DNA of 64,000 nucleotides from a virus (IMGVR_UViG_3300045988_174371:192001-256000), one strand, 5' to 3'; shown: positions 19,954 to 55,756, counted from the first letter of the stretch. The notes: generated from the letters alone by a model not told the origin. A program made the numbers and translations.

Positions 19954-20051
19954 GGTGTCCTTTACTTTCGTGAGTGTTTAGGGTTTACGGTTACTTTTCC
20001 TATAGCGTTTGTTGCGGGTGGGGCGTATTCCTCGATGTGCCCTGCGGCTGA

Positions 20052-20060: not shown

Positions 20061-20097
20061 TACTTTTATCTACTACTTCTTTTGAAAGGATTGCGCA

Positions 20098-21303
20098 ATG
20101 ATTTACGATGCGTTGGATTGGGGTGGCTTCGAGTTTCCCAAGGTTGAGGATTTCTTGAGGTTGCGCTCGCTTGGCTTGAAGGATTGCAGGTCTAAGTGCG
20201 ACTTTGAGGATTACAATTCTGGGCTTATAACGGATGTTCTGGGCGTTCCGACTGATTGGTTTGGTTGGCGTGTCAGTAATGCCTTTGGTGGTGGCGCTGA
20301 TGGGTGGTATGACGATATGAGGTCTGAGTATGGTTTCAAGGTGTGTGATGTTGCTGAGTTCTCAGGTCTTTCAGAGGATAATGTGGTTCAGCTGTATCGG
20401 GAAGGATGCCTGCTCGCTGAGCGTTCGTTGAAGGATGGGGAGCTACTTTTCCCGCCTATTCAGTTTGAGGATGTGGATGAGACGCGGCGCATTTCGCCTG
20501 AGTTCTTTGAGTGTGCCAAGATTTTGACGCGAGGCGGTTTTGGTGGTGAGCGGAGCGTGCATTTCTTGTTCTTTCCCACCACTAATTACGGGCTACTTAC
20601 TGCCGCTGAGTTGTTGAAGACTGGTGATGACGGCTTGCGGGCAATGGTTATTGCGGACACTCATAATTATGTTCTGAACACTTATGTTGAGAAGAGCGCG
20701 AACGAGTGGGTTGAAGTGACGAAGGGTTCGGTGCCTAATCCTGCTGTGGTTCAGGCTTTTGCTGGGTCTGGGTTCTTGGATGATTCGATGGTGGGCGAGT
20801 CAGATGGTGAGTTCATGTTTTCGGATGTTAGTAGGGTGTTGAAGATGAGTGAGGGGTTGATGCTTGCTCGGTCGCAGAGGGGAAGATGGGGTTATTCGGC
20901 GCGCTGGGGGCATGGGCTGTGTCATACGAGTGTTGCGCGTGCTTTAGGTTTGCCTGCTGAGGATGTTGTTTCGCTCTGCAAAAGCGGGGAATTGGTGGTT
21001 CTAGATGTGCAGGATATAGATGATGATTTCGAAGAAGCCTCTAGCTTGGAGTACACGGTGGCTGACTTTCACCTGCTGAGGGAAGGCTCTTGGGAAGAGG
21101 GCATTAAGGTTAGCTTGTGCCCTGCTTCTGTGAGGTTGGGTAGGGCGCTTCGGGAGTTGGGATGGTCACCTAGAGGTATTGCAAGCTTTATGGATTCGCC
21201 TTCGCCGTGGTTTGGTGTTGTGCCTCCGATAAGGTATGCGCGTCTTGGTGAGGAGTATGAGGCGACTGTGATTGCGGTTGCCGCCGCTTTGCCTTGCAGG
21301 TAA
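20098..21303 (+). CDS. hypothetical protein with two internal HTH-plus-antitoxin-like (DUF2384-like) repeats; candidate regulator
   Basis: Two similar units: VCDVAEFSGLSEDNVVQLYREGCLL ... FLFFPTTNYGLLTAAELLKTGDDGLRAMV, and TSVARALGLPAEDVVSLCKSGELVVLD ... FMDSPSPWFGVVPPIRYARLGEEYEATV. Transcribed divergently from the T4SS operon. Confidence 0.45.
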   Translation: MIYDALDWGGFEFPKVEDFLRLRSLGLKDCRSKCDFEDYNSGLITDVLGVPTDWFGWRVSNAFGGGADGWYDDMRSEYGFKVCDVAEFSGLSEDNVVQLYREGCLLAERSLKDGELLFPPIQFEDVDETRRISPEFFECAKILTRGGFGGERSVHFLFFPTTNYGLLTAAELLKTGDDGLRAMVIADTHNYVLNTYVEKSANEWVEVTKGSVPNPAVVQAFAGSGFLDDSMVGESDGEFMFSDVSRVLKMSEGLMLARSQRGRWGYSARWGHGLCHTSVARALGLPAEDVVSLCKSGELVVLDVQDIDDDFEEASSLEYTVADFHLLREGSWEEGIKVSLCPASVRLGRALRELGWSPRGIASFMDSPSPWFGVVPPIRYARLGEEYEATVIAVAAALPCR

Positions 21304-21320
21304 TTAGGAAGGTGCGCAGG

Positions 21321-21363
21321 GAAGAGCCCTCTACTTGGTTTTTTGCCAGGTAGAGGGCTCTTC
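21321..21363. terminator. bidirectional terminator between convergent genes
   Basis: GAAGAGCCCTCTAC-15 nt (T-rich)-GTAGAGGGCTCTTC, between the stop of 20098..21303 (+) and the stop of dnaG (-). Confidence 0.65.
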
Positions 21364-21376
21364 TTGTGTTTTGGGG

Positions 21377-23131: not shown

Positions 23132-23178
23132 CTGCGGTTCCTTTGTCTGAGTGGTGGGGTGCCGGTTACTGTGAGAGT

Positions 23179-23697
23179 TTAGTAGTACGTGCCGAAGTCG
23201 TGTTGTCGGCAGACGTAGCCGAATCGGGCGGGGAGACCGTCTTTCGTAACGGGTTTAGCTTTCTTTGTCTGTTCCCATTGTTCGACTGCTTGGCTCCATT
23301 CTTTGAAGATGTTGTCGTATTGGCTGTTGAGAGCCATGAGCTCTTCGATGGTTTCCTGAGGCTGTTCTTCGTTGGAGTGTTCTAGGTGCGCGCGCTGGGC
23401 GGCTTCGAGCCTGGGCTTTGCAACTTCCAGCAGGTTCCTCATCTTATTGGTGGCTTCAGTAGCGGCGGTGGCGATGGTGCGGCGGCTACTGTCTTTAGTT
23501 TTGGATGCCCAGGCTTCAATTTCTCGGTTGGTGACCGACATAGAGGTGAGGATGCTAGTGACGGAGTTGGTGAGGGCGGTGTATCCGACAAGGATAAGAG
23601 GCGGGACAGTACTCATGATGTGGGAGTCTTTCTTTTGGATGTGTTTAGAGAGTCGTGCGGCACCCCTGAAACCAGTAGGTAGACAGGGGTGCCGCAT
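23179..23697 (-). CDS. hypothetical protein (172 aa; true start may be the internal Met of MSTVPPL)
   Basis: ORF co-oriented between nrdH-like and dnaG. No motif recognised. Confidence 0.4.
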   Translation of the reverse strand: MRHPCLPTGFRGAARLSKHIQKKDSHIMSTVPPLILVGYTALTNSVTSILTSMSVTNREIEAWASKTKDSSRRTIATAATEATNKMRNLLEVAKPRLEAAQRAHLEHSNEEQPQETIEELMALNSQYDNIFKEWSQAVEQWEQTKKAKPVTKDGLPARFGYVCRQHDFGTYY

Positions 23698-23715
23698 TTG
23701 TTGTGTGGGGAGCTG

Positions 23716-24069
23716 TTACTGCTCGCTGGATTCGCTGATTGCCACCTTGAGCACGTCGGGGATGAAACCTGAGAAGCAGATTTCGTTCTCGTCGCTTTCA
23801 TGCTGGCTCACTCCGGGGAGGCTGAGGTAGCGTTCGGGGTGTTCCGTGCGGATGGTCACGATAGGTGCCTGCATGATGTTCGGGTAGCGGCTCTTGATGT
23901 ATTCCAGCTTCTCGGGCTGTTCGTCTACCTTGTAGTTGTCGTAGGTGATGCCTGCGCCGTCTAGTACTCGTGCAGTCTGCTTGCACTGGATGCATTTGTT
24001 CTTGCTGTAGACGGTAATCGTCGGAGTAGCCATCGGGTTTTCTCTCCCTGGTTGTAGTTGGTGGGACAT
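23716..24069 (-). CDS. nrdH: NrdH/glutaredoxin-like redoxin with C-terminal extension
   Basis: ITVYSKNKCIQCKQTARVLDGAGITYDNYKVDEQPEKLEYIKS...QAPIV is a thioredoxin-fold pattern with a CxxC (CIQC). An alternative start at MATPTITVY is possible. Confidence 0.6.
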   Translation of the reverse strand: MSHQLQPGRENPMATPTITVYSKNKCIQCKQTARVLDGAGITYDNYKVDEQPEKLEYIKSRYPNIMQAPIVTIRTEHPERYLSLPGVSQHESDENEICFSGFIPDVLKVAISESSEQ

Positions 24070-24205
24070 TCATATTCTACGTGTTCCGCCTTGGGTTTCA
24101 CAAGGCGGTTAGGTGGGGCGTAAGTATTTTTCTTCTAGCCCCAGTATGTCATAGCGGTTTCATTGTGGTTCTAAGGGGTGTTTGGGTGGGTCTCTGGTGT
24201 GCTCT

Positions 24206-24327
24206 GTGGCTATTTTGTGGGGAGAGTGGCTATTCGTGGTGCCTTAGGGACTTTTCGGGGTTATATGGATGGTTTTTCGGTAGTGGTTTTTTGGTAGGTT
24301 TTTGGGGTTTGGGTGGTTTTTCGGTAG
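24206..24327 (+). repeat. iteron-like short direct repeats in a C-depleted intergenic tract
   Basis: GTGGCTATT at 24206 and 24226 (20-bp spacing). TGGTTTTTCGGTAG at 24270 and 24314 (perfect), plus the one-mismatch copy TGGTTTTTTGGTAG at 24284. Confidence 0.55.
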
Positions 24328-24540
24328 CTGAGGGTAGGTGTGGGTGGCGTGTTGCGTGGCGTGTTTGCGGGGGTCGGGGTGTGTTGTGGGGTGGTTCTAC
24401 TATTGATTAGTGATAAGACTTATCCGGGGGTGGTGTTTTTGAGGCTGTTTAGGGCTTTGCGATGGTCGGCTTTGATGATTTGCGCTCTGCCGCTGTGGGG
24501 TTAGTTGATGCTAGGCGGAGCCGTTGGTCTGCTGACGTTT

Positions 24541-24569
24541 TTAAAAATAAAGGCGCAAGGGGGTATAAT
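24541..24569 (+). promoter_or_regulatory. candidate sigma-70-type promoter for the Rep-like gene
   Basis: TTAAAA (24541-24546), a 17-nt spacer, then TATAAT (24564-24569). This would give a ~165-nt leader. GGAGG at 24725-24729 precedes the GTG at 24737. Confidence 0.35.
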
Positions 24570-24736
24570 GGTGGTTGAGTTTTTGGGGCGACCGTCGGTA
24601 TCCTGTAGGTGAGGAAAAGCTGATGGTGAGTGAAAATGGTTTTGCCGTCCTATTGGTGGTGTGCTAGACTGTTCCCAATCACATGTTATGAAGTAATCTG
24701 TTTGTTTTAAGTACCTCGGAGAAAGGAGGGTCACTC

Positions 24737-27283
24737 GTGGCTATGTCAGCAGTACGTGATGAAGACGCGGTTATGGTTCCGGTGGAGCCTGAGTCCGCGT
24801 CTGTTTTTGTGCCTGTAAACTCTGCCAAGGCGTTCACGGGTGACTCACTGTATCTGCGTGCCCGCCGTGAGGCTGTCCTTGCTCATGCTGAGAATAGGCG
24901 TGAGCAGGGTGCTGGTTATAGCCCGTACAGTGTCGTGGACTCTGACGGGTGCCTACTTCCTGAGAACGTTTCTGCTGAAGATGCTTTTGGAATGTATGTT
25001 GAGCGTGAGGCGTGGGTTCTGCCGCTTGCTTATGTGCATGGCGGTTTGCCGGTGTCTGCGCGTTCTGTTTCGGCTGGCTCTGCGTTTAATGAGCAGGGCG
25101 TGTGGGAGCGTTCTTCGTTGGCGCGTGTCGTTCAGCATGTGCCCTCTCCTGTTCTTGGGCTGAGTGGCGTTGAGTTGCTGGAGATGCCTTCGGGTGTGAT
25201 GGCGCGTCGTGCTTTGGCGTTTATTGCTTCACGTGTTCTGGAGACTGGTGCACGTGAGTTTGTTGTGCCTTCTCAGCCGCGTGCTTTGGCGCGTGTTGCT
25301 GGTGTTCCGGCGCTTTCTGCTGACGGGTATCGCCGGTTTGCTGAGGTGTTCCGTATGTGCCTTGGATTGAGGACTGCTGTTTATGACCGTGCGGCTGATG
25401 GTGGGCGTGGGGAGCTTCTTCATGCGTTCAGTGTTGGCGCGGATGTCTCTGACTCTTCGATGGGTATCATGTACAGCTTGGAGGGTAACGACTCTGGGTT
25501 CGCTGTGGTACGTGTTTCGGATGAGTTCTTTGATTACGTGAGCGGTAGCAATGTTGTGGCTATCCCTGCGTCTATGTGGGGTAGCCGGGTTGTGCGTTCT
25601 TCTGCTGTGGCGTTGGATGTTTTGGCGCTAGTTTTGGCGCGAGCTTCTGCCATGCGTGGCTCTTCTAAGGGCGGTAAGGCTTGGGTTGCTTGGTCGCATC
25701 TGGCGCGTCAGTTCGCTGTGTTCTCTTCCTCTGTACACAAGATGCATAGTGTGTACCGTAACGCGGTGAATGCTGTGCGTTCGCTGTTCGTACTGGAAGG
25801 CTCTGAGGACGTTGTTTCTCTTGTTGGTGGTAAGGGTAAGCGTGGTTTCTCTGGTTTCATGATTCAGGCGTACCGTTCTGCCCTGAAAGTTCTGCGCCCT
25901 CACGCCGTGAAGGTGGGCGATACGCTCTCTAAGCAGGTGCGTGGCGATGTTCAGAGGGAGACTTTGAATGAGTCTGCCGCTAAGGGTGAGCAGGTGCTTA
26001 TCCCTATCCGTGCACCCCGCAAGGGTAACATTTACCGTGCTGTAGACCTTGACCTGCTCTCTACCAAGATGAGCGGTAAGCTGGGCATTTACTTGCCTGC
26101 AATTAGCGAAGAATGGGAGCGTATTGTTGATACTGTTATCGACAGGTACGCCGCTTCCGCGCGCAACGGCAACCTCAAGAAGGTGAACAGCTGGCAGGCG
26201 TATGTTGAAGCGTCTATTAAGAACCAGCCCGCCCTCATGGACACCCCGAAGGAAGCGTCCACCCCTGTACGCCCCTCTCGCGCAATCCAGACCCCGAAGG
26301 TAACCGAAGACACTACCACTACCGAAAAGGCTGTCCAGGAGCCGCATGTAGCCGCTGACGGTCTACCGCGCCGCAACAGCGAGCAGACCCCGAAGACTTC
26401 CGCCGCTAAGCGTAAGGACAGCAACTTCGGTGCACCCTCACCCGTCTACATGTCCGAAGCGTTGGTGAAGAACTCCACCGTGAACACTTTCGACCTTCTC
26501 GATGAGAACTTCCTCAAGCAGTACATGAACGAAGACTGCATCATCACCCTTGACGTGGACACCCCCGAGTACTACGCATACTCTGACGCGCTACAGGCAG
26601 GAGCCGTGCCCGTAAATAACTACGAGCAGTGGAAGAAGGGCGTAAAGTTCCCCCCTGTCCGCGTGAAGCTCCCCTCCGGCGGCTACACCTACCTGAACGC
26701 CGGTAGCCGCTACACCAAGGGCGACGAATACTACTGCCGCGTCCTCCTCACCGAAGACTTCAGCAAGGACATCAAACGCACTATCTCCAACATCCGTGGA
26801 GACCGCCCTGTCACCCCCACCGAAGTTCCCATCCCCCCCGCGCCCGCCCCGGTTGCCCCTGTAGCGACTCCTGCACCCGTAACTCAGGTAGCAGAAACCA
26901 TTCCTCCGCGCCCTGAGTCGAAAAAGGAAGAGTCTGCTCCGGTATCTGAGCCTGCCGCACCCAAGAAGCGGAAGATTTGCTCCAACATGCCTAAGCATGT
27001 CGCTGAATCCCTCGCACCCTGGGACAAGGTGGACGCACACTACACCTACGTAGACGCGGAAGAAACCCTCGACGGCTACCTTGCGAACTTCAACGCTGAC
27101 CCGCTAGAGGCTGAAGTCATCAATGAGGCATCCCTGCCGCCTGTGGCTAACGAGGAGGAAGCAGAAGCTCGCGCCGCTATTCTGAAGTGGATTAACAACT
27201 CGAAGGACAGGAAGCCCCTACTGGATAGCATTATGAACCCCGCTCCTGAGCCTGACGACGAGTACCCCATCCTCAAGTACTAG
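24737..27283 (+). CDS. candidate plasmid-type replication initiator (RepA/TrfA-like winged-helix N-terminal half) with long Pro-rich C-terminal half
   Basis: Pattern similarity only: GVMARRALAFIASRVLETGAREFVVPSQPRALARVAGVPALSADGYRRFAEVFRMCLGLRTAVYD, then SAVALDVLALVLARAS...KAWVAWSHLARQFAVFSSS...YRNAVNAVRSL. Sits immediately downstream of the iteron-like tract. GTG start with a GGAGG SD. Confidence 0.4.
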   Translation: MAMSAVRDEDAVMVPVEPESASVFVPVNSAKAFTGDSLYLRARREAVLAHAENRREQGAGYSPYSVVDSDGCLLPENVSAEDAFGMYVEREAWVLPLAYVHGGLPVSARSVSAGSAFNEQGVWERSSLARVVQHVPSPVLGLSGVELLEMPSGVMARRALAFIASRVLETGAREFVVPSQPRALARVAGVPALSADGYRRFAEVFRMCLGLRTAVYDRAADGGRGELLHAFSVGADVSDSSMGIMYSLEGNDSGFAVVRVSDEFFDYVSGSNVVAIPASMWGSRVVRSSAVALDVLALVLARASAMRGSSKGGKAWVAWSHLARQFAVFSSSVHKMHSVYRNAVNAVRSLFVLEGSEDVVSLVGGKGKRGFSGFMIQAYRSALKVLRPHAVKVGDTLSKQVRGDVQRETLNESAAKGEQVLIPIRAPRKGNIYRAVDLDLLSTKMSGKLGIYLPAISEEWERIVDTVIDRYAASARNGNLKKVNSWQAYVEASIKNQPALMDTPKEASTPVRPSRAIQTPKVTEDTTTTEKAVQEPHVAADGLPRRNSEQTPKTSAAKRKDSNFGAPSPVYMSEALVKNSTVNTFDLLDENFLKQYMNEDCIITLDVDTPEYYAYSDALQAGAVPVNNYEQWKKGVKFPPVRVKLPSGGYTYLNAGSRYTKGDEYYCRVLLTEDFSKDIKRTISNIRGDRPVTPTEVPIPPAPAPVAPVATPAPVTQVAETIPPRPESKKEESAPVSEPAAPKKRKICSNMPKHVAESLAPWDKVDAHYTYVDAEETLDGYLANFNADPLEAEVINEASLPPVANEEEAEARAAILKWINNSKDRKPLLDSIMNPAPEPDDEYPILKY

Positions 27284-27292
27284 GCAGAGGCA

Positions 27293-27337
27293 CAGAAAAC
27301 CCCACCCACGCTTTCTATACGTGGGTGGGGTTTTCTG
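27293..27337 (+). terminator. intrinsic terminator (18-bp stem plus T-tract)
   Basis: CAGAAAACCCCACCCACG-9 nt-CGTGGGTGGGGTTTTCTG followed by TTG. Begins 10 nt after the stop at 27283. Confidence 0.75.
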
Positions 27338-27382
27338 TTGAGCCACGTACTGAAGGTATGCTCAGCTCAGGTTGGAGAAACA

Positions 27383-27421
27383 CTTACGCCCCCAAACCTT
27401 AGGAAGGCTTGAGGGCGTAAG
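27383..27421 (-). terminator. candidate terminator downstream of the rpf-like gene
   Basis: CTTACGCCC-21 nt-GGGCGTAAG. Lies ~80 nt after the stop at 27499. Confidence 0.3.
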
Positions 27422-27498
27422 CTGTGAGAAGGCGGGGCACTCAACCCCTACCCAAACAATAGTTAAGCTATTGTCAGCTGTGTAATTATTATTCTACA

Positions 27499-28281
27499 CT
27501 AGCTTCCCGGAATGGTCAAGACCTGACCCGGAAAAATAAGATTCACATCGTAAATCACATCCACATTAGCGTCCGCAATAGCCTGATAGCCGCCTGCAAC
27601 ACCCAAACGGCTTGCAATGAGCGATAGCGTATCACCAGCAACAACCTGGTACGTGGAAGAAGCCGCAACCGGAGCCTTCACAGGGGCAACGGCAGGAGCC
27701 GGAGCCTCAGTAGCAACCGGGGCGACCGGAGCAGACTCAACAGCCGCAGTAGAAGCCGCATCTGCCGAAACAGCAGGAGCCTCAACAACAGGGGTAACTG
27801 GAGTAGCTACAGCAGGAGCCGCCGGAACGGTGGCAGGAGCCGGAGCTACCGGAGTCTGCACAGTGCCCTGAGGAGCAACTACCGTAGAAGTAGTAGCCGC
27901 CGGAGCAGACTGAACTGCACCAGAGTTAGAGTAGGTGGGGGTTGCCGCGCCAGACAAACCGTACTTGGCAGTACAAGCGGGCCATGCGCCCCAACCCTGC
28001 AAAGCTAGAAGACGCTCACCAGCTTCAATCTGAGCCTCCTTGGAAGCGGTGTGCGGAGAACCGCTCATACCTACACCATTCCAAGACTGCTGAGTGAACT
28101 GCAAACCGCCATAGAAACCGTTACCAGTATTGATAGACCAGTTACCACCCGACTCACACTGAGCGAGCTTTTCCCACGTAGCAAGGTCAGCGGCATTAGC
28201 CGAAGGAACCGCAAGTGCCCCAACGGAAAGACCACCAAGTGCAAGAGCTACAGCGGTACGACGAATGGAAGTGTTCTTCAT
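27499..28281 (-). CDS. rpf: resuscitation-promoting-factor (Rpf) transglycosylase-like domain protein with C-terminal LysM
   Basis: Signal peptide. Rpf core WEKLAQCESGGNWSINTGNGFYGGLQFTQQSWNGVG...EAQIEAGERLLALQGWGAWPAC. An Ala/Pro/Val-rich linker. LysM YQVVAGDTLSLIASRLGV...NLIFPGQVLTIPG. Confidence 0.85.
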   Translation of the reverse strand: MKNTSIRRTAVALALGGLSVGALAVPSANAADLATWEKLAQCESGGNWSINTGNGFYGGLQFTQQSWNGVGMSGSPHTASKEAQIEAGERLLALQGWGAWPACTAKYGLSGAATPTYSNSGAVQSAPAATTSTVVAPQGTVQTPVAPAPATVPAAPAVATPVTPVVEAPAVSADAASTAAVESAPVAPVATEAPAPAVAPVKAPVAASSTYQVVAGDTLSLIASRLGVAGGYQAIADANVDVIYDVNLIFPGQVLTIPGS

Positions 28282-46122: not shown

Positions 46123-47259
46123 TTATTGGAAGCCTGCCAGCTTATCCCCAAAGAACTCACTAGCGCGGGTTCGCTTCTTCACAGGCGTGCGGGCAACCAG
46201 CGTGACTAGCCCAACATCAATATACCCCTTCTCGCTTTCAGGAAGCTCACTATAGAACTTGTCCAGAATCTTAGTGAAGCGCGGCGCGTCGATAGGCTTA
46301 AAGTCGGACTCATGCCACTCATCAACCATCAAGAACCTCACCGCCCCAGGGATGTACTCTGGCTCATCCGGGTTCATCCCATTATGCTCAGGGTTCTTCA
46401 CATCCTTAGGATGTATGTTCACAATGCCGCGAACATACCCACGCTTCTTGCCGCCAATGTAGTTCTGCCAGAGATACATTGCCTGCTTCATGCGCACATA
46501 CCTAGGGTACTTCTGCCCCGGCACGACGATAGAGTAGTTACTCTTATTCGTCTTAGGATTCTTCTTCTTAAATGAGTATACGGCACGAGGGTCATTCAAA
46601 TCCACCCCCGCTTTCCACATTTTCGAGTCGATAATCCACACCTGCGAACCAACCACGAGCACATGGTCAGTATCCGGCGAATCCACGACACCCAACTCCT
46701 CATCCGGGGAGCTGATGCTCTTCTGCTCCTCCGCCAATTCCTCAGGTGACTCCTCATTCAGGGGGACAATTTCAATCTCAGTCTTGACATCATCACCCTC
46801 TTTGCGGGGAATCGACACAGAATGACAAATCACCACATCCGGCTTATCATCAGCCCACTGCGCTAAAGCCTTGGCGGTCAGCTCTTCACCTTCGATACCG
46901 GCTTTAATCTTGCCGGTATTCGACGGTGAGTTCTTCCAATTCTTAGGCGGAAACTCTAGCGTGTTGTACAAGCTAGTTGCAGGTACGCCGAAGGTTCTAA
47001 TCGCCGCCTTCGCGCCAGGCTTCGACAAGTCGGCATCCTCCGGTATGTTCTTAAGATGCTCAACCACCGCTTCTACGCGCGCCTCCGCTTTACGTGCTCG
47101 CGTCGCGCCAATGTGGTCAAAGTATCCCTCCGGCGGCATCAATAGAGGCGCATAAATCTCAGGGTTCTCACTAGGCACTAGACCAGGGTCTACTTCCTGA
47201 GGCTCCTCGTGGCTCTTCTCGAACTGGGCAAATGCCTCTTCAAAGCTAATGGGTGACAT
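46123..47259 (-). CDS. NERD-domain-like (nuclease-related) protein
   Basis: AGIEGEELTAKALAQWADDKPDVVICHSVSIP ... DTDHVLVVGSQVWIIDSKMWKAG fits the NERD G-x-x-GE ... D-h-h-h ... (D/E)-x-K layout, with an acidic insert. Confidence 0.45.
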   Translation of the reverse strand: MSPISFEEAFAQFEKSHEEPQEVDPGLVPSENPEIYAPLLMPPEGYFDHIGATRARKAEARVEAVVEHLKNIPEDADLSKPGAKAAIRTFGVPATSLYNTLEFPPKNWKNSPSNTGKIKAGIEGEELTAKALAQWADDKPDVVICHSVSIPRKEGDDVKTEIEIVPLNEESPEELAEEQKSISSPDEELGVVDSPDTDHVLVVGSQVWIIDSKMWKAGVDLNDPRAVYSFKKKNPKTNKSNYSIVVPGQKYPRYVRMKQAMYLWQNYIGGKKRGYVRGIVNIHPKDVKNPEHNGMNPDEPEYIPGAVRFLMVDEWHESDFKPIDAPRFTKILDKFYSELPESEKGYIDVGLVTLVARTPVKKRTRASEFFGDKLAGFQ

Positions 47260-48714
47260 CTACACCTCCTCACTCTCAATAGTCAGCTCAGTAAAGGACA
47301 TTGTGCCCTTACCAGACATGTCAGCGTCACAACTCAGGGGTATCTGAACCTCTGCCCCCGCCTTCACTGTGTCAGCACGGAAAGTGCAAGTACCCAAGTC
47401 TGCCTTATTGAACCAGCTCAAAGGGTTGTACGCCTCGGAACCTGAAGCATGTACAGACCCATAAACACGGTGAGCATTCGTACTACCTTCGTTCTTGAGC
47501 ACAGCATAGTAGCCGCCGTCCTTACGCGCCACCCCCGTAACGGTAACCTTACCATTATCTGCAAGCTCAACACTAGAAGAACCAGACGGACTGAAGACCC
47601 TATCGCCAGTAATCTGACCGTTAATGAAACCACCTAGCAGGAAAACGAGTATCGCCAACGCAACCCCTGCCATACCGCGACCAGTTGGGGTGCCGGGGAC
47701 TGACTTCTTAAAAAGCCTGCCTAGGAGCGGTATTTTCCCGCCCTTCTGTAGGGCACCTGCAACCGTATCCAGGGCACGCAAGAAGAACGCCTTCACGCCA
47801 CCACTAGACCCCTTGGAAGACCCCTTCACGGCATCATCTGCCCCGATTTGTGCAGGTGGCGCAGGGGTTGCAGGTTTTTCATCCGGCTCATCCGCTAGAG
47901 GTTCGGCAATGTCATCATCAGCTAAAATTCCTTCGTTTAGCTCTTCCCATCGGATGAAGTCGTCCGGCTGAAGACTCTCCATTGCCTCGCTCTCGTTGAG
48001 GTCTTGCAGGAAAGTGTCAGCCCAACCAAAATATTCCCCATCTGCGTCCTTGAGCACGTATGCACCATCTGCATCTCGTGCAATGTCATCAGGGGGTGTT
48101 TCGCTTAGGTCGTTATCGGGTGCATCTTCAAAGTCGTCATCGAAGATGTCTTCCCAGCCTTCTTCTCCCTCTTCATCATCCGTATCAGCCTCAGAATGAG
48201 AGGTTTCTTCCGCTTCAGAGGATAGTTCACGGTAGATTTGCGATAAGTAGTCATCATCATCTTCTCCCTCTGCATCATCGTCATTAGTGATAGCTGGAGA
48301 GTAGTCGTCGTCCGGGCTGAAGCTTTCCTCTACAACGGAAGCCGCACGCTCGCTAGGGGACATTGCGTAATAGTCATCGTCTTCGTCCCAGTCGTCATCG
48401 TCATCCCAGGCTTCTTCTAAATCATCTGGCTCTTCTTCCTCAGTAGTGTAATCCTCAACTTGCTCATCATCAAAGACACCGAATTGAGCTGAATCACCTT
48501 GCAGGCTCGCCAATATAGCATTACCTGCTTCAGCCTCAGGGGTAGCATCCGACGTTTCTAGCGTGGCATCTTGCTCCGTTTCAGGGGCAGGGGCATCTTC
48601 CAGCAGAGGGAAGTCATCGGGGTTAATTCCCTCTGCTTCATCGCCTGCTACAGCTGTAGGTGGCGGCACAGGGACGACGGTAGAAGCCCTAAGTTTAGAA
48701 AGACGTATAGCCAT
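47260..48714 (-). CDS. highly acidic N-terminal domain, single TM, small beta-rich C-terminal domain (484 aa)
   Basis: ~270 aa dominated by D/E runs (EAWDDDDDWDEDDDYY, GEDDDDY, TDDEEGEEGWEDIFDDDFED). TM MAGVALAILVFLLGGFINGQI. ~120-aa C-terminal domain. Its stop abuts the start of the NERD-like gene. Confidence 0.55.
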   Translation of the reverse strand: MAIRLSKLRASTVVPVPPPTAVAGDEAEGINPDDFPLLEDAPAPETEQDATLETSDATPEAEAGNAILASLQGDSAQFGVFDDEQVEDYTTEEEEPDDLEEAWDDDDDWDEDDDYYAMSPSERAASVVEESFSPDDDYSPAITNDDDAEGEDDDDYLSQIYRELSSEAEETSHSEADTDDEEGEEGWEDIFDDDFEDAPDNDLSETPPDDIARDADGAYVLKDADGEYFGWADTFLQDLNESEAMESLQPDDFIRWEELNEGILADDDIAEPLADEPDEKPATPAPPAQIGADDAVKGSSKGSSGGVKAFFLRALDTVAGALQKGGKIPLLGRLFKKSVPGTPTGRGMAGVALAILVFLLGGFINGQITGDRVFSPSGSSSVELADNGKVTVTGVARKDGGYYAVLKNEGSTNAHRVYGSVHASGSEAYNPLSWFNKADLGTCTFRADTVKAGAEVQIPLSCDADMSGKGTMSFTELTIESEEV

Positions 48715-48823
48715 TAAAACCAGCTTTCATCAGGTGTAAATAGTAAGAGAAAATGTCGGGGTAATGAAGTGTTACAAAGAATATATCTGCAACATTCCAA
48801 TACCCCGACATTAAAGGCAAGGT

Positions 48824-51535
48824 TTAAGCGACTCGGGTATGACCCCAATCGAAAGAACCCTCACCAAACATTCTCACCAAAGCGCTCTTAGTAGCGTTCA
48901 CAAAAGGAACATGGATAGGAACCTCCACATAGCCCATCATGTCCGCCAAATCGTCCATAGAAGCGCTAGAAGCTTCTAGCGGGGCAACTGGAACGTCAGC
49001 CCATGAACGCCCCTCAGAAGGGGCTTCAGTCGCCGCATAAGCGAACTTACTCGGCAAATCGACACCATACCCCAGTTTGGACGAGTCATACACCGCCACT
49101 TTAAGCGGCACCCTCCGCGTCGTGTCAGCCACAGCCAACCCGCCAACAGCAGACTGAACCATGCCCACAGCTTCCTCCAAGGAGCCACCGCGTGAGATGT
49201 CTACTCGAAGCCTAGCGCACATCTCACCTGATGCGGAAAGCGGAACCTGCCGAGTGTTCAAGATGTTCAGGTATGGTGGACGGTAGCTAACCTCCCCCTC
49301 ATCATTAACAATCTTCCGGGCGGGCGTGTAATTCACATGCAGGGAATACACCTGATAAGGCTCTAGTTTAGGGCTAGACCTAACCGACGCAGAGGTTACC
49401 CTGGCAACATCTGCCGCATCAGCATGAACACCTTGCAGAAAGGCGTTCTTCACATTCTGCTCAGAGACCCACAAATCCTCGCGCGTAAGCAAACTGTTAG
49501 ACACATACCCAGCGATAGTACCAGTACCGTCATCTAGCGTTGCCAGAACCTTGCGTCCAAACTTCTTATGCGTCTTATCTTCTAGTGCTACAATCGCCGC
49601 CATAACAACAGCACCCTTTACAGGGTGCTCAGAGGACAATAGCTCACCAACAGTACAAGCACGCATCACCGGAACACGCGGAGGAATTGAAGCCATCGGG
49701 TGACCAGTCATATACTGACCAGCTACCTCAGCCTCATACCTCAGCCTCTCAACCAAGGGATAATCCTCCACAGAGAGAGAAACGTCATCCGGTAGCGACT
49801 CCCCCGTAACCAGCTCAGCATCAGCCGACAGCGCGACCCCCGAATCTTTAGCCGCCTTCAATGCCTGACGTTTAAGCTTAGCCCGCTCTTTACGTAGCAA
49901 ATCCAAGTAGCCAGGGATAGCTTCAAGAACCGCCTTGCGGGAGACACCAAACACATCAAATGCGCCCGCCTTCGCCAAGCCTTCATAGGTAGTCTTAGTG
50001 ACCTTACCGGCATTAAACGTGCGAACAACAAAGTCCTTCACGCCGCGATAAAGTCCGCCACGCTCACGCTCAGACACGATAACCTCAGCATCCTTCGACC
50101 CTACACCCTTGAGCATAGAGAACCCGAAAGCGAGATTACCCTCACCGTTCAACCCAATGTCAGCACTGGAGAAATTCACGTCAGGAACATCCAAACGCAC
50201 CCCGCGCCGCCGAGCGTCCTCAATAAGCTCCTGAACCTTGTCTCGACCTGCTGACCCCATCGTAACCTTACGGGCAATAGCCGCCGCATAGAACTCCGCA
50301 GGATAATGCGCCTTCATATACAAGGCAAGATAAGCCATCGCCGCATACGCATCCGAGTGCGATTTATTGAAGCCATACTCTGCAAAGCCAACAATCCTAT
50401 CCCACAACGTCTGCATCGCCTCACGGCTGAAGCCATTAGATGCGCCGCCTGAGATGAAACGCTCAGCATATGCCAGCATCAAGTCGTGCTTCTTCTTGCC
50501 AATCGCTCGACGCAAATCATCGCCCTCTTGGGGAGTCATCCCAGCAATCAGAGAAGCAATAGACATCACCTGCTCCTGATAGACCAGAAGACCGCTCGTA
50601 TCTGCAAGAATGTCATCAAGAGCCGAACCTACGAAGTCAGGGTGAATTGGCTTCACTTCCTCACGACCAGCTCGACGCTCCACATACTGAATATGACTAC
50701 CAGCACTCATAGGCCCTGGACGATACAGCGCCGTAATAGCCGAAATGTCACCCAGCGTGCTAGGGGCGAACTTCGTGAAAAGGTCAGCAACAGCAGAATT
50801 ACCTAGCTGGAAGATACCAACCGTATCACCCTTACCCAGCAGACGGAACGTCTCAGCATCATCAAAGCGGCTTTCTCGAACCATCTTCCTGAAGTCAGGG
50901 ACATCTTTCCCCGCCTGGACTGCTAGACGTGCCGCATCACACAGAATATCAACAGTATCCAGCCCCAAAAAGTCGAACTTAATAAGCCCCATGCTTTCGC
51001 ACGCACCATACTCAAACCCCGCAACAACAGACCCATCCTTCGCCGTATCAACGGGAACATGATGATGCAGAGGGCTTGACGAGATAAGCAATCCGCAAGC
51101 ATGAACACCACGACCACGGATGCGACCTTCAAGGGCTTTCGCGCAAGCGATTGGCTTCTCCCAGAACGGCGTGTCTACAGCCTCACGGAAACGTGCAGAG
51201 CCAGCATACTCTTCACTATCAGGGTCATAGACCTTAGCGAAAGTAATTCCGAGGCTATCCGGCAAGAGACTTGTCACGTAGTTCGCCTGAGCGGGAGGCA
51301 CCCCGTAGACACGCGCACCGTCTTTAATCGACGCGCGCGTCTTGAGCATCTGATTAGTTGGCAACCTTGCAGAATGGTCAGCCCCATATAGCTGAGCAAC
51401 ATGCTCAAACGCGGCATCTCTATGCGCAGTATGAAAGTCAGTGTCAATATCCGGTGGAGAACCAGGGTGTACAACCTTATTGCTCGTGACGCGAACGTAC
51501 ACCTTGCCCTCAACAACTCTTTTCTCTACACCCAC
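48824..51535 (-). CDS. dnaE: DNA polymerase III alpha subunit, C-terminal fragment (palm/fingers/beta-binding/OB), separate ORF
   Basis: After a 24-26-aa head (MGVEKRVVEGKVYVRVTSNKVVHPGS) it starts with PPDIDTDF. Also HACGLLIS, GLIKFDFLGLDTV, FNKSHSDAYAAMAYLALYMKAHYP and an OB-like KGAVVMAAIVALEDK. GTG start 2 nt after the dnaX stop, with GGAGG 7 nt upstream. Confidence 0.85.
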   Translation of the reverse strand: MGVEKRVVEGKVYVRVTSNKVVHPGSPPDIDTDFHTAHRDAAFEHVAQLYGADHSARLPTNQMLKTRASIKDGARVYGVPPAQANYVTSLLPDSLGITFAKVYDPDSEEYAGSARFREAVDTPFWEKPIACAKALEGRIRGRGVHACGLLISSSPLHHHVPVDTAKDGSVVAGFEYGACESMGLIKFDFLGLDTVDILCDAARLAVQAGKDVPDFRKMVRESRFDDAETFRLLGKGDTVGIFQLGNSAVADLFTKFAPSTLGDISAITALYRPGPMSAGSHIQYVERRAGREEVKPIHPDFVGSALDDILADTSGLLVYQEQVMSIASLIAGMTPQEGDDLRRAIGKKKHDLMLAYAERFISGGASNGFSREAMQTLWDRIVGFAEYGFNKSHSDAYAAMAYLALYMKAHYPAEFYAAAIARKVTMGSAGRDKVQELIEDARRRGVRLDVPDVNFSSADIGLNGEGNLAFGFSMLKGVGSKDAEVIVSERERGGLYRGVKDFVVRTFNAGKVTKTTYEGLAKAGAFDVFGVSRKAVLEAIPGYLDLLRKERAKLKRQALKAAKDSGVALSADAELVTGESLPDDVSLSVEDYPLVERLRYEAEVAGQYMTGHPMASIPPRVPVMRACTVGELLSSEHPVKGAVVMAAIVALEDKTHKKFGRKVLATLDDGTGTIAGYVSNSLLTREDLWVSEQNVKNAFLQGVHADAADVARVTSASVRSSPKLEPYQVYSLHVNYTPARKIVNDEGEVSYRPPYLNILNTRQVPLSASGEMCARLRVDISRGGSLEEAVGMVQSAVGGLAVADTTRRVPLKVAVYDSSKLGYGVDLPSKFAYAATEAPSEGRSWADVPVAPLEASSASMDDLADMMGYVEVPIHVPFVNATKSALVRMFGEGSFDWGHTRVA

Positions 51536-51537
51536 AA

Positions 51538-52827
51538 TTAGCCTCCCTGAGGTGCCTTAGTCTGACTCTGCTTAGCCGTAATGACCGAGCGCATACGCAT
51601 AGTCACATCAATCCACAGAATCTCAAAGATAATGTTCTCGTCACTGGTATTCCAGAATCCCTGGAAAGACCTCTCCAGAGTCTTTAGGAGCTTCATCGCC
51701 ATATCTGGCGGCAAATGACGGCGCATCTCCTGCAATCCAATGTCCTGTTTAGGCAAGTCAGCAAACGGCAAATCCGCGTTGCTGACCGTTGCCCCGTAAA
51801 CCCAGGTGATGTAATGGCGAAGCTGACCCATAACCTCCTCCGTGCCATCACGCAAGGATGCCTCATGCTCCTTCGCGTCCTCCAGAGCCTCGTGGATACG
51901 AATAATATCGCCGTAAATTAGGCACCTCAACAGGCTAGTAGCCGTCGATTCGGTACCACTGTACATGTCTGGGTTGCGCAGGTACTCTTCAAGCTTCTTG
52001 AGCGCGCCACGTGCAGAGCCCTTTGCCGCCCTAGCGCACCATGCCGCGCCCGAGTCAGAGATTTCTTTATGCTCGCGCGCCGCAATGTCACGAACATACT
52101 TCTCCAAAGTAGCTACAGGGATATTCTTAAGCTTATACTCCTGAACTCGCGTAAGAATCTCATCCTTGATGCCGTTCATCTTCGTAGTGCAGAAAAAGAT
52201 GGGCACATAGTCGGCGCTATCCTTATTCTCCAGGTACGGCAAGAAAGCGTTCCATGCAGGCTCAGACAGCGCATGACACTCATCAATGATGATGAACGGA
52301 GCTTTCTGCATCTGCTTAACTGAACCGTTACTGACGATACGTCTAGTATCTTCCACACCACTCTTAAGTGCGGCAACGAAATGGTTCATACCACCATTGG
52401 CGGAGGCATCGAAAGCAAGGCACGCATCACAGGTCAAGCAAGGGTCTGCCGAGTCAGCAGGGCGACCCGTGCAGTTCATAGCCTTAGTGAAGACCTTCAC
52501 AATACTAGACTTACCCACGCCAGGCTTACCGCGAAGCAAACGCCCCTGAACGCGGCGATTCTTAATGATGTCCTCCTTCAGCTGGGCAATAATCTCTTCC
52601 TGCCCAACAAAGTCACCCCATACTCGCGGCTGGTACTTACGGTGGAACTCAACGTATTCCTCATCGCCCTCCTGAGGCTCTTCTGCCTCATCGGTAGGTT
52701 CTAGTACCTCAGCATCAGAAACCGTCTCGTCGCTAAAGGGCTCAATCGCGCCACCAGGGTCGCCCACAGACTCCAAAGGCAACGTCTCTTCCCCTAGGGG
52801 CAAAGTGTCATGCATCTCTTCAGTCAT
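51538..52827 (-). CDS. dnaX: DNA polymerase III gamma/tau (clamp-loader ATPase) DnaX-like
   Basis: HRKYQPRVWGDFVGQEEI, Walker A LRGKPGVGKSSIV, zinc module CLTCDAC, Walker B FIIIDECHALS, sensor FFCTTKMNGIKDEILTRV. Acidic N-terminal extension. Confidence 0.8.
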   Translation of the reverse strand: MTEEMHDTLPLGEETLPLESVGDPGGAIEPFSDETVSDAEVLEPTDEAEEPQEGDEEYVEFHRKYQPRVWGDFVGQEEIIAQLKEDIIKNRRVQGRLLRGKPGVGKSSIVKVFTKAMNCTGRPADSADPCLTCDACLAFDASANGGMNHFVAALKSGVEDTRRIVSNGSVKQMQKAPFIIIDECHALSEPAWNAFLPYLENKDSADYVPIFFCTTKMNGIKDEILTRVQEYKLKNIPVATLEKYVRDIAAREHKEISDSGAAWCARAAKGSARGALKKLEEYLRNPDMYSGTESTATSLLRCLIYGDIIRIHEALEDAKEHEASLRDGTEEVMGQLRHYITWVYGATVSNADLPFADLPKQDIGLQEMRRHLPPDMAMKLLKTLERSFQGFWNTSDENIIFEILWIDVTMRMRSVITAKQSQTKAPQGG

Positions 52828-52842
52828 AACCTATCTTCCTCA

Positions 52843-54345
52843 CTAATCCAAAGTCTCACTAATAACGTCACCTAGTGTCGTACCGGGCTCTAGGAGAACC
52901 CAATCGCCGGGAAGTACCTGGTGAACATACTTCTCCAACTCTGCGCCGCCATCCGTCAGTACTTTAACTTTCTCGGAGACAGGCAAAACGGCAGAGCTTT
53001 CATCTCCAAACCTCAGCTCTGCCTGGTCTACACGACCTGCTGAGATGAAACGTTCAAAGAACAAGCCGAACTCGATAGGGTCAATGTCAGTAATGCCCAG
53101 CAGATAAGCGACGATAGAGCCTCCAGCAGAGCCACGAGCGATACCTACCGCACTCATCACAATCTCATCAGCCGCATTACGGACACTGAACGATTCACGG
53201 AACCAATTCACGTATTCAGCCACGATAACCATGTAGCCACAATAGTTTGCTGAGGCTAGGGCATCAAGCTCTTTCTTTGCACGCTCCAACACCAGAGAGT
53301 ACTTATCCTTGTCATGGTGAAACTGCTCATAAGCGAGCGACGTAACCGTCCTACGCAAGTAGCTTTCCTCAGTCTCGTCCGCCGGAATGAGTGGCACAGG
53401 ACGCAAATCAGACCTGTACTCAAACAGCGAGAATCCTTGCACCTTGCCCGCAAGCTCAGCTGTATTAGTTACTGCACCTGGGTACTCCGTATCCGGGAAA
53501 AGACGCATCATCTCGTCTGCGCTCTTGAGGTAGTACTGGTCGCCGTCAAAGCAAAACCTGCGACCACCCTGTTCCTTCGGCAAGTCATTCATTGTTGAGC
53601 CTGTACCGATAGCAAGCATCTCCTCATGGTGGGGTGCATCCTGAGGCAATGCATAATGGCAATCGTTAGTTGCCAGTAGGCGCAACCCCAAATCCTTAGC
53701 GAGTGCGACCTGCTTCACCAGCAGGGACCGCTCCAAATCTGAAGACATCGAATGGTTCATAACCTCTACGAAGACGTTCTCGACACCGTAAATGTCGATA
53801 AGAGTCTGCGCATAGGAATAAGCCTCAGCATCCTGCCCCAAACGGAAACGGGTAGAAATCTCACCAGAGGGACATCCAGTAGATACCACAATGCCCGACG
53901 AATATTCCCTCATCATCTCCAAATCGATACGGGGGTACCCGCCGCGCTTATGCTCAGGGGAAGCCGCCAACATCTGCAACGTAAACATATTACGCAGACC
54001 CTCATCATTGACAGCCCACATCGTCAAATGCAGATAGTTACCCCTGCCAGACACATCCCCAACAGCCCCAGGCGCACCGTAAAAAACGGGAGTCTTCACT
54101 TTAGCACCCTCAGGGTTAATCGGTGCGACGTAGAACTCACAACCTGGTACGGGGGTGACACCAGCCTTTTGGCAACCCGTCACAAGTTCATAGATGCCGT
54201 GCATGTTGCCGTGGTCAGTGATACCCAGAGCAGTCTGACCTGCATCAACTGCACGCTGAATGTACTCGCTGACACTAGAGAAGCCGTCTAGCGTGGAGTA
54301 TGTTGAGTGCGTATGAAGGTTTACGAAAGATTCAGGGGAAACCAA
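52843..54345 (-). CDS. dnaE: DNA polymerase III alpha subunit, N-terminal fragment (PHP domain and start of palm), separate ORF
   Basis: FVNLHTHSTYSTLDGFS, ITDHGNMHG ... IARGSAGGSIVAYLLGITDIDPIEFGLFFERFISAGR, then a ~62-aa non-DnaE tail ending at a TAG. Confidence 0.85.
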   Translation of the reverse strand: MVSPESFVNLHTHSTYSTLDGFSSVSEYIQRAVDAGQTALGITDHGNMHGIYELVTGCQKAGVTPVPGCEFYVAPINPEGAKVKTPVFYGAPGAVGDVSGRGNYLHLTMWAVNDEGLRNMFTLQMLAASPEHKRGGYPRIDLEMMREYSSGIVVSTGCPSGEISTRFRLGQDAEAYSYAQTLIDIYGVENVFVEVMNHSMSSDLERSLLVKQVALAKDLGLRLLATNDCHYALPQDAPHHEEMLAIGTGSTMNDLPKEQGGRRFCFDGDQYYLKSADEMMRLFPDTEYPGAVTNTAELAGKVQGFSLFEYRSDLRPVPLIPADETEESYLRRTVTSLAYEQFHHDKDKYSLVLERAKKELDALASANYCGYMVIVAEYVNWFRESFSVRNAADEIVMSAVGIARGSAGGSIVAYLLGITDIDPIEFGLFFERFISAGRVDQAELRFGDESSAVLPVSEKVKVLTDGGAELEKYVHQVLPGDWVLLEPGTTLGDVISETLD

Positions 54346-54375
54346 TGGTTCTTATTCCTCAATTAGTCAGGTAGC

Positions 54376-54421
54376 AACGTGAGGGCACGCTCCAAAAGAT
54401 GATGGAACGTGCCCTCACGTT
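54376..54421 (-). terminator. intrinsic terminator (14-bp stem) upstream of dnaE-N
   Basis: AACGTGAGGGCACG-18 nt-CGTGCCCTCACGTT, between the stop at 54527 and the dnaE-N start at 54345. Confidence 0.55.
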
Positions 54422-54526
54422 ATTCACTACTTAATCACTTAACACTAGAAGCAAGGAGGTACCGTGTCTTCCAACATTAGCCATAATAGCACATGCCTGT
54501 GGTGCGGCACCAAGGCAATAGGGGTA

Positions 54527-55756
54527 TTAAATTTTGGTTCGACGCAACCGAGTCTGAGTCTTCTCATCAAGCTTCGGCTTCACCTGGTAGATTCTCTCTG
54601 CCATTTGAACAAGGGGAAGAGCCTTTGCAGACTTACCCACTGCGCTACCATTAACGATACCAACATCAAGATAGCGAGTAGGATTACCTTGAGCATCGAG
54701 AGGGGAATCTGGCATCGCCAGCGTAATGTTACGCTTGTCTGCGGGGCATGTGTTACCTACATCCATTAGGATAGGGATAACGCCAGGCGGTGTGCGGGAG
54801 ATGACCTTATCGAAGAGCCACGGCTCAACAGGTTTCCCTGCATAGGTAAGTCGTCGAGACTTTACCTTATCCCCAAAAAGACCGACCTTTTCTTCCAATA
54901 CGAAGGATGTTTCCATCTTTACGGGGAAGAATAGGTATGCCCTCTGCCCTACCACGAAGACCGGCGCCGGAGCGCCATTGCGAGGCGCAGTATAGGGGTA
55001 GTAGTACCATTCAGAGTCGTACTTATTCTTATGCTCCTCATTTAGGAGCGCGGCTTCTTCCTTGACTTTCTTCTCCAAATGCTTAGGCTGTACGAACACT
55101 GGCATCTTCGCGCGCCAGTAGAACATCTTAACGCCGTAGCGATACCACAAAGAAGAAATGCCCACAGAGAGAAGCATTAGAACGCCGCCACCAAGAGCTG
55201 GGTTTAGCGTAGAAGCCGTCGTGATAACGCCAGCAGTAGTAGCGAGAACGGTCACCCACGGCTGATGCGTCCAACGGGACACCCCATAAACTCCGAACAA
55301 GGAGATGGTGTATGAAATTCCTAGAGCCAGCAGTGGGGAGAAACCTGCGAAGAACTCCCAGCCGCTATACGGCGAAGCGAAAACCGCCACATCATGCATC
55401 GTCACCATACAATAACCAACAATGGTTAATGTCACAAGAACTTTAATGATGACGACGGAACGGCTCAGCACGAACAGGAACCCGGCAGACACCACGAGCC
55501 AGACCCACGGAGCCCACCAAGACAACCCCTGAATACGGGATGAGACAATAGAGAGGAAGAGCGTAATCGAAACAGCGGGAAGTGCGAATCGCCCATACGA
55601 GCCTTCCAGGAACTCTACAAGCCACTTACTGAGCCTGCGGAACGCTGAAATGCACCTGTCTCTAAATGTCTTCTTCACCCCATCGCTGGAACTTTCAACC
55701 GTATCACCTGTAGAAATGTCCACAAGGGATTCCTCAGCATTAGCTTTCTTCTTCAT
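54527..55756 (-). CDS. polytopic membrane protein with soluble C-terminal domain (409 aa)
   Basis: ~7 hydrophobic spans in residues ~50-230, then a ~180-aa soluble domain. The start overlaps the MazG-like stop by 17 nt. Confidence 0.5.
   Translation of the reverse strand: MKKKANAEESLVDISTGDTVESSSDGVKKTFRDRCISAFRRLSKWLVEFLEGSYGRFALPAVSITLFLSIVSSRIQGLSWWAPWVWLVVSAGFLFVLSRSVVIIKVLVTLTIVGYCMVTMHDVAVFASPYSGWEFFAGFSPLLALGISYTISLFGVYGVSRWTHQPWVTVLATTAGVITTASTLNPALGGGVLMLLSVGISSLWYRYGVKMFYWRAKMPVFVQPKHLEKKVKEEAALLNEEHKNKYDSEWYYYPYTAPRNGAPAPVFVVGQRAYLFFPVKMETSFVLEEKVGLFGDKVKSRRLTYAGKPVEPWLFDKVISRTPPGVIPILMDVGNTCPADKRNITLAMPDSPLDAQGNPTRYLDVGIVNGSAVGKSAKALPLVQMAERIYQVKPKLDEKTQTRLRRTKI

Follow-up and report, generated by a model that had tools for sequence, protein, structure and literature searches.

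The viral DNA studied here, IMGVR_UViG_3300045988_174371:192001-256000 (64,000 nucleotides (nt), hereafter the window), carries a DNA polymerase III (Pol III) alpha subunit, DnaE, that is not one polypeptide: in the window and in all close relatives it is encoded by two open reading frames (ORFs). The N-terminal fragment, DnaE-N, ends in an acidic tail, and the C-terminal fragment, DnaE-C, begins with a basic head. We propose, with a probability of about 0.6, that tail and head are what is left of a split intein, miniaturised and catalytically dead, and that they would serve as the non-covalent clasp of a two-piece polymerase. Non-covalent assembly through tail and head is the part of this proposal that we regard as quite probable. 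Intein ancestry is suggested by a match to the Hint fold, an identical insertion site and the charge polarity of the two ends, and not by sequence similarity.

Positions 48824-54345 of the window hold three consecutive minus-strand ORFs, DnaE-N, DnaX and DnaE-C. Their sizes, the gaps of 15 and 2 nt and a separate Shine-Dalgarno (SD) site for each downstream ORF are exactly as given in the original prediction, which was made from this DNA alone. The features are:

52843-54345, minus strand: DnaE-N gene, 500 amino acids (aa), TTG start; PHP domain, N-terminal half of the palm, and tail
52846-53031, minus strand: tail of DnaE-N, aa 439-500 (62 aa), acidic and beta-rich, VDQ...ETLD; predicted N-part of a Hint-like clasp
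52828-52842, minus strand: spacer of 15 nt between DnaE-N and dnaX, with SD-like GAGGAAG 5' of the dnaX ATG
51538-52827, minus strand: gene for a dnaX-like clamp-loader ATPase, 429 aa, gamma-length
48824-51535, minus strand: DnaE-C gene, 903 aa, GTG start; head, PDIDTDF, remaining palm, thumb, fingers and helix-hairpin-helix (HhH)
51458-51535, minus strand: head of DnaE-C, aa 1-26, MGVEKRVVEGKVYVRVTSNKVVHPGS, basic, ending ...VVHPG before the extein Ser; predicted C-part of a Hint-like clasp
51434-51457, minus strand: PPDIDTDF palm motif, directly after the head, aligning from PF07733 position 100

The SD-like sites read tGAGGAAGataggttATG 5' of dnaX and cAGGGAGGcTAAttGTG 5' of DnaE-C, whose GTG start lies 2 nt past the dnaX stop with GGGAGG upstream. 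Across the two ORFs the DnaE domain set is complete and in order (PHP, palm PDxDxD, third Asp motif, fingers, HhH). DnaE-N matches the Pfam PHP family at aa 10-198 and PF07733 positions 2-100 at aa 329-440; its AlphaFold2 model has a predicted local distance difference test score (pLDDT) above 90, and its best Foldseek match is Mycobacterium tuberculosis DnaE1 (7pu7, E 5e-36). In DnaE-C, PF07733 positions 100-260 match at aa 26-191, the fingers at 222-368 and HHH_6 at 445-535, and both PPDIDTDF and KFDFLGLD are present in the translation. The cut falls between ...FERFISAGR, ending at R438, and PPDIDTDF. It is clean at the profile level, since the halves are complementary on PF07733 (2-100 and 100-260) as well as on NCBIfam PRK05673 (4-399 in DnaE-N and 400-1038 in DnaE-C, a junction at 399/400). 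The 62 residues past R438 and the 26 aa of the head lie outside all DnaE homology. We take the Asp residues of PPDIDTDF to be catalytic, the counterparts of Escherichia coli D401 and D403. With the nucleotide-binding half of the palm on DnaE-N and the catalytic Asps on DnaE-C, neither chain should be able to polymerise alone; each half would be inactive by itself, and assembly would hence be required.

The division is a family trait. A search of 5.8 billion proteins returned 391 relatives of the N fragment at E<=1e-10, and the best 120 of these 391, from which the details are drawn, all have the split and the tail and end soon after the same Arg. Likewise, the split and the head are present in each of the best 119 C-fragment homologues. 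Among the best 120 N-fragment relatives the tail has a median length of 50 aa. Across relatives the tail measures about 50-62 aa and the head about 14-26 aa; the typical pair is a tail of about 50 aa and a head of about 14 aa. The tail consensus is G-ATYRITYDDGTxEEIIVSxxKKV...KYIHQLxVGDxV; that of the head is KKIxSIxVVxPG, followed by S-x-PDxDxDF. The split recurs in hundreds of metagenomic relatives among huge phages, the longest of their contigs reaching ~700 kb, and a 307-kb IMG/VR viral contig (L001) is near-identical to the window. For a survey of loci we combined viral and metagenome scans, which gave 121 tail-bearing loci, in part redundant, with 41 unique tail/head pairs; the viral scan for tails used a tail-only alignment, and a broader alignment gave mostly generic DnaE.

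At none of the 121 tail-bearing loci does a contiguous gene contain the tail, and 236 loci, 240 proteins and the representative genomes of GTDB yielded no contiguous DnaE with a tail/head insert. The GTDB genomes gave ordinary bacterial DnaE only, which shares FERFxSxGRG by chance. Two candidates for a contiguous gene with a tail (L033 and L083) were rejected as ordinary DnaE without an insert. The split family was not found in 50,697 annotated phage records, in which the nearest DnaE is contiguous and at most 40% identical; against INPHARED phages, megablast of the region gave no match, and tblastn with the window halves and with a typical family member returned contiguous DnaE only, again at no more than 40% identity.

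Selection acts on the ends as well as on the polymerase. In a codon analysis against two relatives, the ratio of non-synonymous to synonymous substitution (dN/dS) was 0.08-0.14 for the tail core, 0.18-0.27 for the head and 0.04-0.07 for the DnaE core, values that are rough because synonymous sites are near saturation. By this measure tail and head are both under purifying selection. The conserved tail core spans aa 439-485; aa 486-500 form a clade-specific, fast-evolving extension.

It might be argued that the gene is broken by a frameshift or an assembly error, is decaying as a pseudogene, or is repaired at the RNA level through an intron, trans-splicing or ribosomal bypass. A split essential gene is by itself what such an account would predict, and a group I intron does occur near the site in a different viral DnaE, L016, described below. 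However, the same architecture recurs in hundreds of independent assemblies, the halves, tail and head are under strong purifying selection, every ORF comes with a start codon and an SD site of its own, and a complete conserved gene lies between the halves. Because the split recurs in all of the best homologues, 120 for the N and 119 for the C fragment, and at the 121 loci, it is neither a frameshift nor a chance feature, as the original prediction had already argued for sequencing frameshifts. Rfam gave zero matches at E<=1 over 48500-54700, thus no intron or ribozyme, and RNA-level repair is unsupported. We consider artefact, decay and RNA-level repair effectively refuted.

Two further observations concern the family at its margins. 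Many tails end in His/Cys-rich sequence (...HC, ...HEHC, ...HHH or ...HEH, in P0011, P0013, P0015, P0065, P0113, L188 and L190), absent from the window clade, which suggests a metal-binding or other functional C-terminal tag. Two loci, L022 and L028, have a more divergent split DnaE with a longer, unlike tail, GRMGNWEERPLFSFQLEDGS...GDDIIKY, a head MKVVKVVEKTGLKLQQGS/LPDID (here and below a slash marks a junction) and 220-830 nt between the DnaE genes; this lineage may represent the same process at an earlier stage or a separate instance of it.

If tail and head descend from an intein, their sequences appear to have lost the means to splice. The residue after ...GR is Gly in 114 of the 120 N-fragment homologues and Val in the remaining 6, as in the window, and is never Cys, Ser, Thr or Ala. 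The head ends in P/A-G, with the Gly in 119 of 119, and never in His followed by Asn, Gln or Asp. No TxxH motif (intein block B) is conserved in the tail, and no Cys is conserved anywhere in tail or head. The original prediction had noticed that the ends lack splicing residues in the window, and its homologues bear this out; its remark that the head ends in VVH does not carry over, as the His position varies among S, K, T, H, D and R. What is conserved in the tail is a Tyr, Asp-Gly, Glu, Ser, Y-x-H-Q-L and Gly-Asp. The His of YIHQL (~81%) stands outside a TxxH context, and its mapping to an intein block is uncertain. Ser occupies the extein +1 position in 117 of 119, which is uninformative because Ser is also the ordinary DnaE residue there (VSMPD).

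These data bear on whether a working, if atypical, split intein could produce a contiguous alpha subunit of ~150 kDa through trans-splicing or cleavage by non-canonical chemistry. The Hint-like predicted fold described below, the +1 Ser and the conserved tail His are what such an intein would offer. Against it stand Gly or Val at position 1, the P/A-G head end, the lack of a conserved TxxH or Cys, and a +1 Ser that is just the normal DnaE residue; in addition, the smallest active inteins known are about twice as large as tail and head together. Moreover, the split family carries canonical inteins at three other sites, GRG/C...VHN/S (at the GxGRGS motif), VHA/C...AHN/C and FNK/C...SHN/S, some of them with TnsA-like or other endonuclease domains (bearers: P0025, P0038, P0078, P0085, P0118 and P0120 for the N fragment; P0135-P0149 and P0203-P0234 for the C fragment). 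As the same proteins carry such C1...HN/S or C inteins elsewhere, canonical chemistry is the norm for the real inteins of this lineage. We judge splicing by tail and head to be extremely unlikely. Intein Pfam matches in longer homologues (P0025, P0120 and others) were considered as inteins of the split site and rejected, because they lie at the other sites.

One property that the ends do share with split inteins is their charge. Net charge in the window is -9 for the tail and +3 for the head. Across the family, tails have a mean charge of -8 and are negative in 99% of cases (-0.15 per residue, versus -0.04 for the N core), and heads have a mean of +3.2 and are positive in 94%. Natural split inteins have the same polarity, an acidic N and a basic C part, and charge guides their association (PMC2677866).

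Structure prediction is consistent with a single folded unit. AlphaFold2 was given a fusion of the window N fragment with C-fragment residues 1-200 and an alignment of 83 N-fragment homologues. In the predicted structure the tail has five strands and a single helix (pLDDT 87-94), and the head has three beta-strands (pLDDT 91), although it has no alignment rows of its own; together they form one beta-rich unit, and past residue 526 the C part is unfolded, because there are no alignment rows there. The 93-residue tail and head module modelled alone reached a mean pLDDT of 88.2 and a predicted template modelling (TM) score, pTM, of 0.72. When this module was compared with the PDB by Foldseek, Hint-fold proteins occupied essentially every high-probability rank: the RadA, TFIIB, PolII, CDC21, VMA, GyrA, DnaB and KlbA inteins, the Aes123 PolB1 split intein (9hth), the Hedgehog HINT/autoprocessing domain and a BIL domain. 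Normalised to the 93-residue query, the TM-scores lay at 0.53-0.59 over 85-95 columns. Among viral models (BFVD) the matches were intein-bearing terminases, ribonucleotide reductases and polymerases and one 'Hint module' protein, and a search with the whole model already returned the same mini-inteins below the Pol III alpha matches.

The site itself is one that mobile elements visit, as the original prediction had supposed from its conservation. All fetched loci were scanned for in-frame insertions between FERF and PDxDxD, which led to L079 (IMGVR_UViG_3300017971_000250), an 85-kb viral contig with a contiguous DnaE that contains a 402-aa in-frame intein. Its junctions read FERFLAPGR/CFPGETLV...GGILVSN/SDLPDIDCDF. 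The insert begins with Cys1 and ends in Asn, and the extein residues on either side of it are the two that also enclose tail and head in the split family. A Hint_2 N-block matches at the first residues of the insert, and an Intein_splicing C-block ends where PF07733 resumes (position 99); both Pfam matches are sub-threshold. The viral DnaE of L016, of the contiguous type, has about 1 kb inserted at LLFER/FLNPHRISMPDVDLDF (L016:9299-10354); this DNA matches the whole of the group I intron model (RF00028, E 5e-8, below gathering) and holds a free-standing LAGLIDADG-type ORF. This intron lies six codons upstream of the split site. Given the L079 intein and the L016 intron, the split site is a hot spot for homing elements.

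The DnaE ORF of L079 (L079:4654-10017) has 1787 aa and carries a second insertion of ~420 aa between fingers and HhH. The middle of its first intein looks low in complexity and is possibly a decayed endonuclease.

Several results weigh against the proposal of a split-intein remnant that acts as a clasp. Pfam searches of the tail, the head and their fusion returned no Hint family at E<=10. A profile of tail plus head aligned to the family's own inteins by hhalign with a probability of 7.7% (local) or 0.4% (global). Thus the search of the two ends against Hint and intein profiles, proposed in the original prediction as a check, found no signal, and the V-x-T-D-G-G...G-D-x-V-L pattern that it had read as a Hint cue fails with it. 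Pairwise alignment with the L079 intein gave z = 0.7-2.8, no detectable similarity, and with such values we claim no block-by-block intein mapping. The Foldseek list is very uniform, but its E-values are individually weak, from 0.016 to 0.2 with none reaching 1e-3, and the match extends over no more than about half of a mini-intein, with a target-normalised TM-score (TMt) of about 0.3. Both AlphaFold2 models join tail and head in cis, the head without alignment depth, and both cover the window clade, in which tail and head are longer than the family norm. Finally, at 88 aa in the window and ~64 aa in typical relatives, the module is far below any functional Hint domain known to us.

The same results could be accommodated by an insertion that was never an intein. 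A small beta domain in the palm loop of a contiguous DnaE might later have been cut by gene fission, leaving halves that pair by strand complementation; the likeness to Hint would then be convergent or reflect small beta-sandwich geometry. The missing Hint signal (Pfam, hhalign and the L079 pairwise comparison), the limited Foldseek E-values of 0.016-0.2 and the absence of about half of the Hint fold all fit this account, as does a sub-threshold match of typical tails to the Tudor-like PF21743 (E 7e-4), over the first hairpin. Yet the contiguous DnaE with an insert that fission would start from is missing from the 236 loci, 240 proteins and GTDB representatives, and the structural matches are almost exclusively to Hint, not to SH3, Tudor or other small beta folds. 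The boundaries are also equal, to the residue, to those of the real intein in L079, and the ends show the acidic-N/basic-C polarity of split inteins. We regard a non-intein insertion as unlikely, if still a serious contender.

In the split-intein reading, the two hypotheses that the original prediction had listed separately, a degenerate or miniaturised split intein and beta-strand complementation, become one explanation: the Hint-like fold is supported by prediction, and catalytic activity is what has to be given up. We propose a model where a split intein once occupied this exact DnaE site, then shrank and lost all splicing residues. The acidic tail and basic head would find each other by charge-guided capture, followed by strand complementation, much as in the association step of real split inteins. 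Co-folding, as predicted by AlphaFold2 for the two ends fused in cis, would give a half-Hint beta domain projecting from the palm loop, and this clasp would rebuild the active site without formation of a peptide bond. The paired halves, held non-covalently, would then be an active polymerase. In the window, tight spacing (15 and 2 nt, with own ribosome-binding sites) should give co-expression with a gamma-like clamp-loader subunit.

That subunit is encoded by the gene between the halves. Its product covers positions 1-352 of the 355 in TIGR02397 (dnaX_nterm), with E 9.5e-48 and a score of 163 bits, less than the 250-bit equivalog cut-off; PF13177 and AAA families also match, and E. coli gamma/tau are the best PDB matches. 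The translation has a Walker A motif GKPGVGKS, a zinc module CLTCDAC, DECH, and LTRV replacing SRC. The AAA+ module is complete (domains I-III), and the protein ends at about domain III without the tau C-terminal domains IV-V; full-length tau models are matched to about position 360-374 only. Residues 1-57 (52657-52827) form a very acidic N-terminal extension (EE.., DE..), and the alignments of relatives begin at aa 46-59.

The original prediction gave dnaX a possible central role, through co-translational assembly with the clamp loader, and proposed to survey gene order in relatives. Among the 121 tail-bearing loci the orders are:

DnaE-N and DnaE-C directly adjacent: 47 loci
DnaE-N, dnaX, DnaE-C: 31 loci
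DnaE-N followed by dnaX, with DnaE-C not within ~5 kb: 36 loci
partial or other arrangement: 7 loci

Adjacent genes typically share an 8-nt ATGA-type overlap. In other lineages the C fragment lies at least 5-8 kb off; in L236, for example, DnaE-C is at least 8 kb from any N fragment or dnaX and follows genes for a ribonucleotide reductase small subunit and an ADP-ribosylglycohydrolase. Four loci (L126, L156, L169 and L187) have 1.8-4 kb of additional DNA separating DnaE-N from dnaX.

A dnaX placed between the halves could enforce co-translational or stoichiometric assembly, with tail and head binding DnaX and not each other. The order N-dnaX-C with minimal spacers, together with its flanks (PRA-PH/MazG-like upstream, NERD-like downstream), is kept in relatives only 46-52% identical and must therefore be old within its branch, and a gamma-length DnaX without the alpha-binding tau domains would need an alternative contact with the polymerase. 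However, the same tail and head occur at the 47 loci in which N and C adjoin without dnaX, and elsewhere the C fragment is distant or extra DNA intervenes between N and dnaX. The cis model also packs the head on the tail confidently without DnaX. As only about one tail-bearing locus in four has dnaX between the halves, we find assembly centred on DnaX highly improbable. Since tail and head are alike with or without dnaX, the split and its ends are independent of it; dnaX is a passenger between the DnaE genes in the window lineage and not part of the mechanism.

The closest precedents for our reading are the cyanobacterial split DnaE inteins (Ssp/Npu) and the 'fractured genes' of Dassa et al. 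2009, in which active split-intein halves flank a homing endonuclease (PMC2677866). As in these, a Pol III alpha gene is in two parts, in our reading with a Hint-type piece on each side, acidic at N and basic at C; fractured genes likewise have their halves close together and separated by another gene. The known inteins keep Cys1, TxxH, Asn and the +1 nucleophile and ligate their exteins, whereas the phage ends lack all splicing residues. They are also larger, ~135-140 aa against 64-88 aa for the phage module, and sit at other DnaE sites, the phage module being just before PDxDxD; the intervening gene of fractured genes is a homing endonuclease, and here it is dnaX, where there is any. The L079 intein has identical extein boundaries (...FERFxxxGR/insert/S..PDIDxDF), but its insert is 402 aa long, in frame, has Cys1 and the terminal Asn, and shows no detectable similarity to tail or head.

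Split family-B polymerases of phages and archaea (Aeh1, Aes123 and Nanoarchaeum equitans) are a second parallel, in that a replicative polymerase came to be in two cistrons after invasion by a mobile element, although the polymerase family and the break points are different. The two products of the T4-related Aeh1 gp43A/43B reportedly form a non-covalent complex, and we know of no use of intein-derived ends by Aeh1. Aes123 and N. equitans splice, the latter as a split PolB (PMC2677866). In T4-like jumbo phages, Iyer et al. 2021 described a minimal Pol III alpha that is split between distant genes and predicted to reconstitute (PMC7824862). The catalytic module is similarly divided there, into an NTP-binding and a Mg/DNA-binding part, but that version is without PHP and other DnaE domains, stands beside a family-B replicase and has no intein-like ends described (PMC7824862). 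The full-length PHP-DnaE of the window is evidently the replicase. Its closest annotated relatives are DnaE proteins of actinophages (Streptomyces, Mycobacterium and Gordonia phages), 35-40% identical over both halves; these are single ORFs without an insert at the break, and the homology stops at aa 439 of the N fragment and resumes at aa 26 of the C fragment. In none of these known systems does a PHP-DnaE of full length, cut just before PDxDxD, bear miniature ends that are Hint-like in prediction and lack splicing residues. A full-text literature search did not find this arrangement described, which is not proof of its absence.

The common view treats inteins as selfish elements, which stay active or disappear. 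It is tempting to speculate that in this huge-phage clade a selfish split intein was domesticated, giving up its splicing chemistry and about half of its fold, and that the stubs of about 50 and 14 aa became an obligatory assembly device of the polymerase, a natural minimal 'split-Hint clasp' and the first intein remnant with a structural role; for this wider claim we see even odds. If true, such a remnant, widespread, under selection and unable to splice, would illustrate exaptation clearly and would set a lower bound on the size of a Hint-type association module. It would also mean that a C-family replicase works with an active site from two chains, raising the question of regulated assembly during infection. 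The dozens of diverged, small, charge-complementary tail/head pairs could be useful as orthogonal tags for heterodimerisation without a covalent scar. Annotation now records the two genes as separate 'DNA polymerase III alpha' fragments, and they may be mistaken for pseudogenes.

The surroundings of the three genes are a phage replication module, with SbcC/SbcD-like proteins, a primase, an NAD-ligase and a Dda-like helicase in the window. Directly downstream of DnaE-C, a 484-aa ORF (47260-48714) is extremely acidic and of low complexity over its N-terminal two-thirds, contains a hydrophobic segment and a beta-looking C-terminal region, and matches no Pfam family. The gene that follows (46123-47259) has a weak NERD nuclease match, and these downstream neighbours of DnaE-C recur in distant relatives. 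Farther away, in a profile over 1-64000, GC and AT skew change sign abruptly at ~26 kb (window 20000-28000): GC skew is +0.1 to +0.4 before this point and -0.1 to -0.25 after it, and the cumulative skew has its maximum there. The verified genes flanking this point, the SbcC-like gene and the primase to one side and the NAD-ligase and the Dda-like helicase to the other, are all minus-strand genes, and the flip looks like a replication-related strand asymmetry, at an origin or a terminus, and not like a coding-strand effect.

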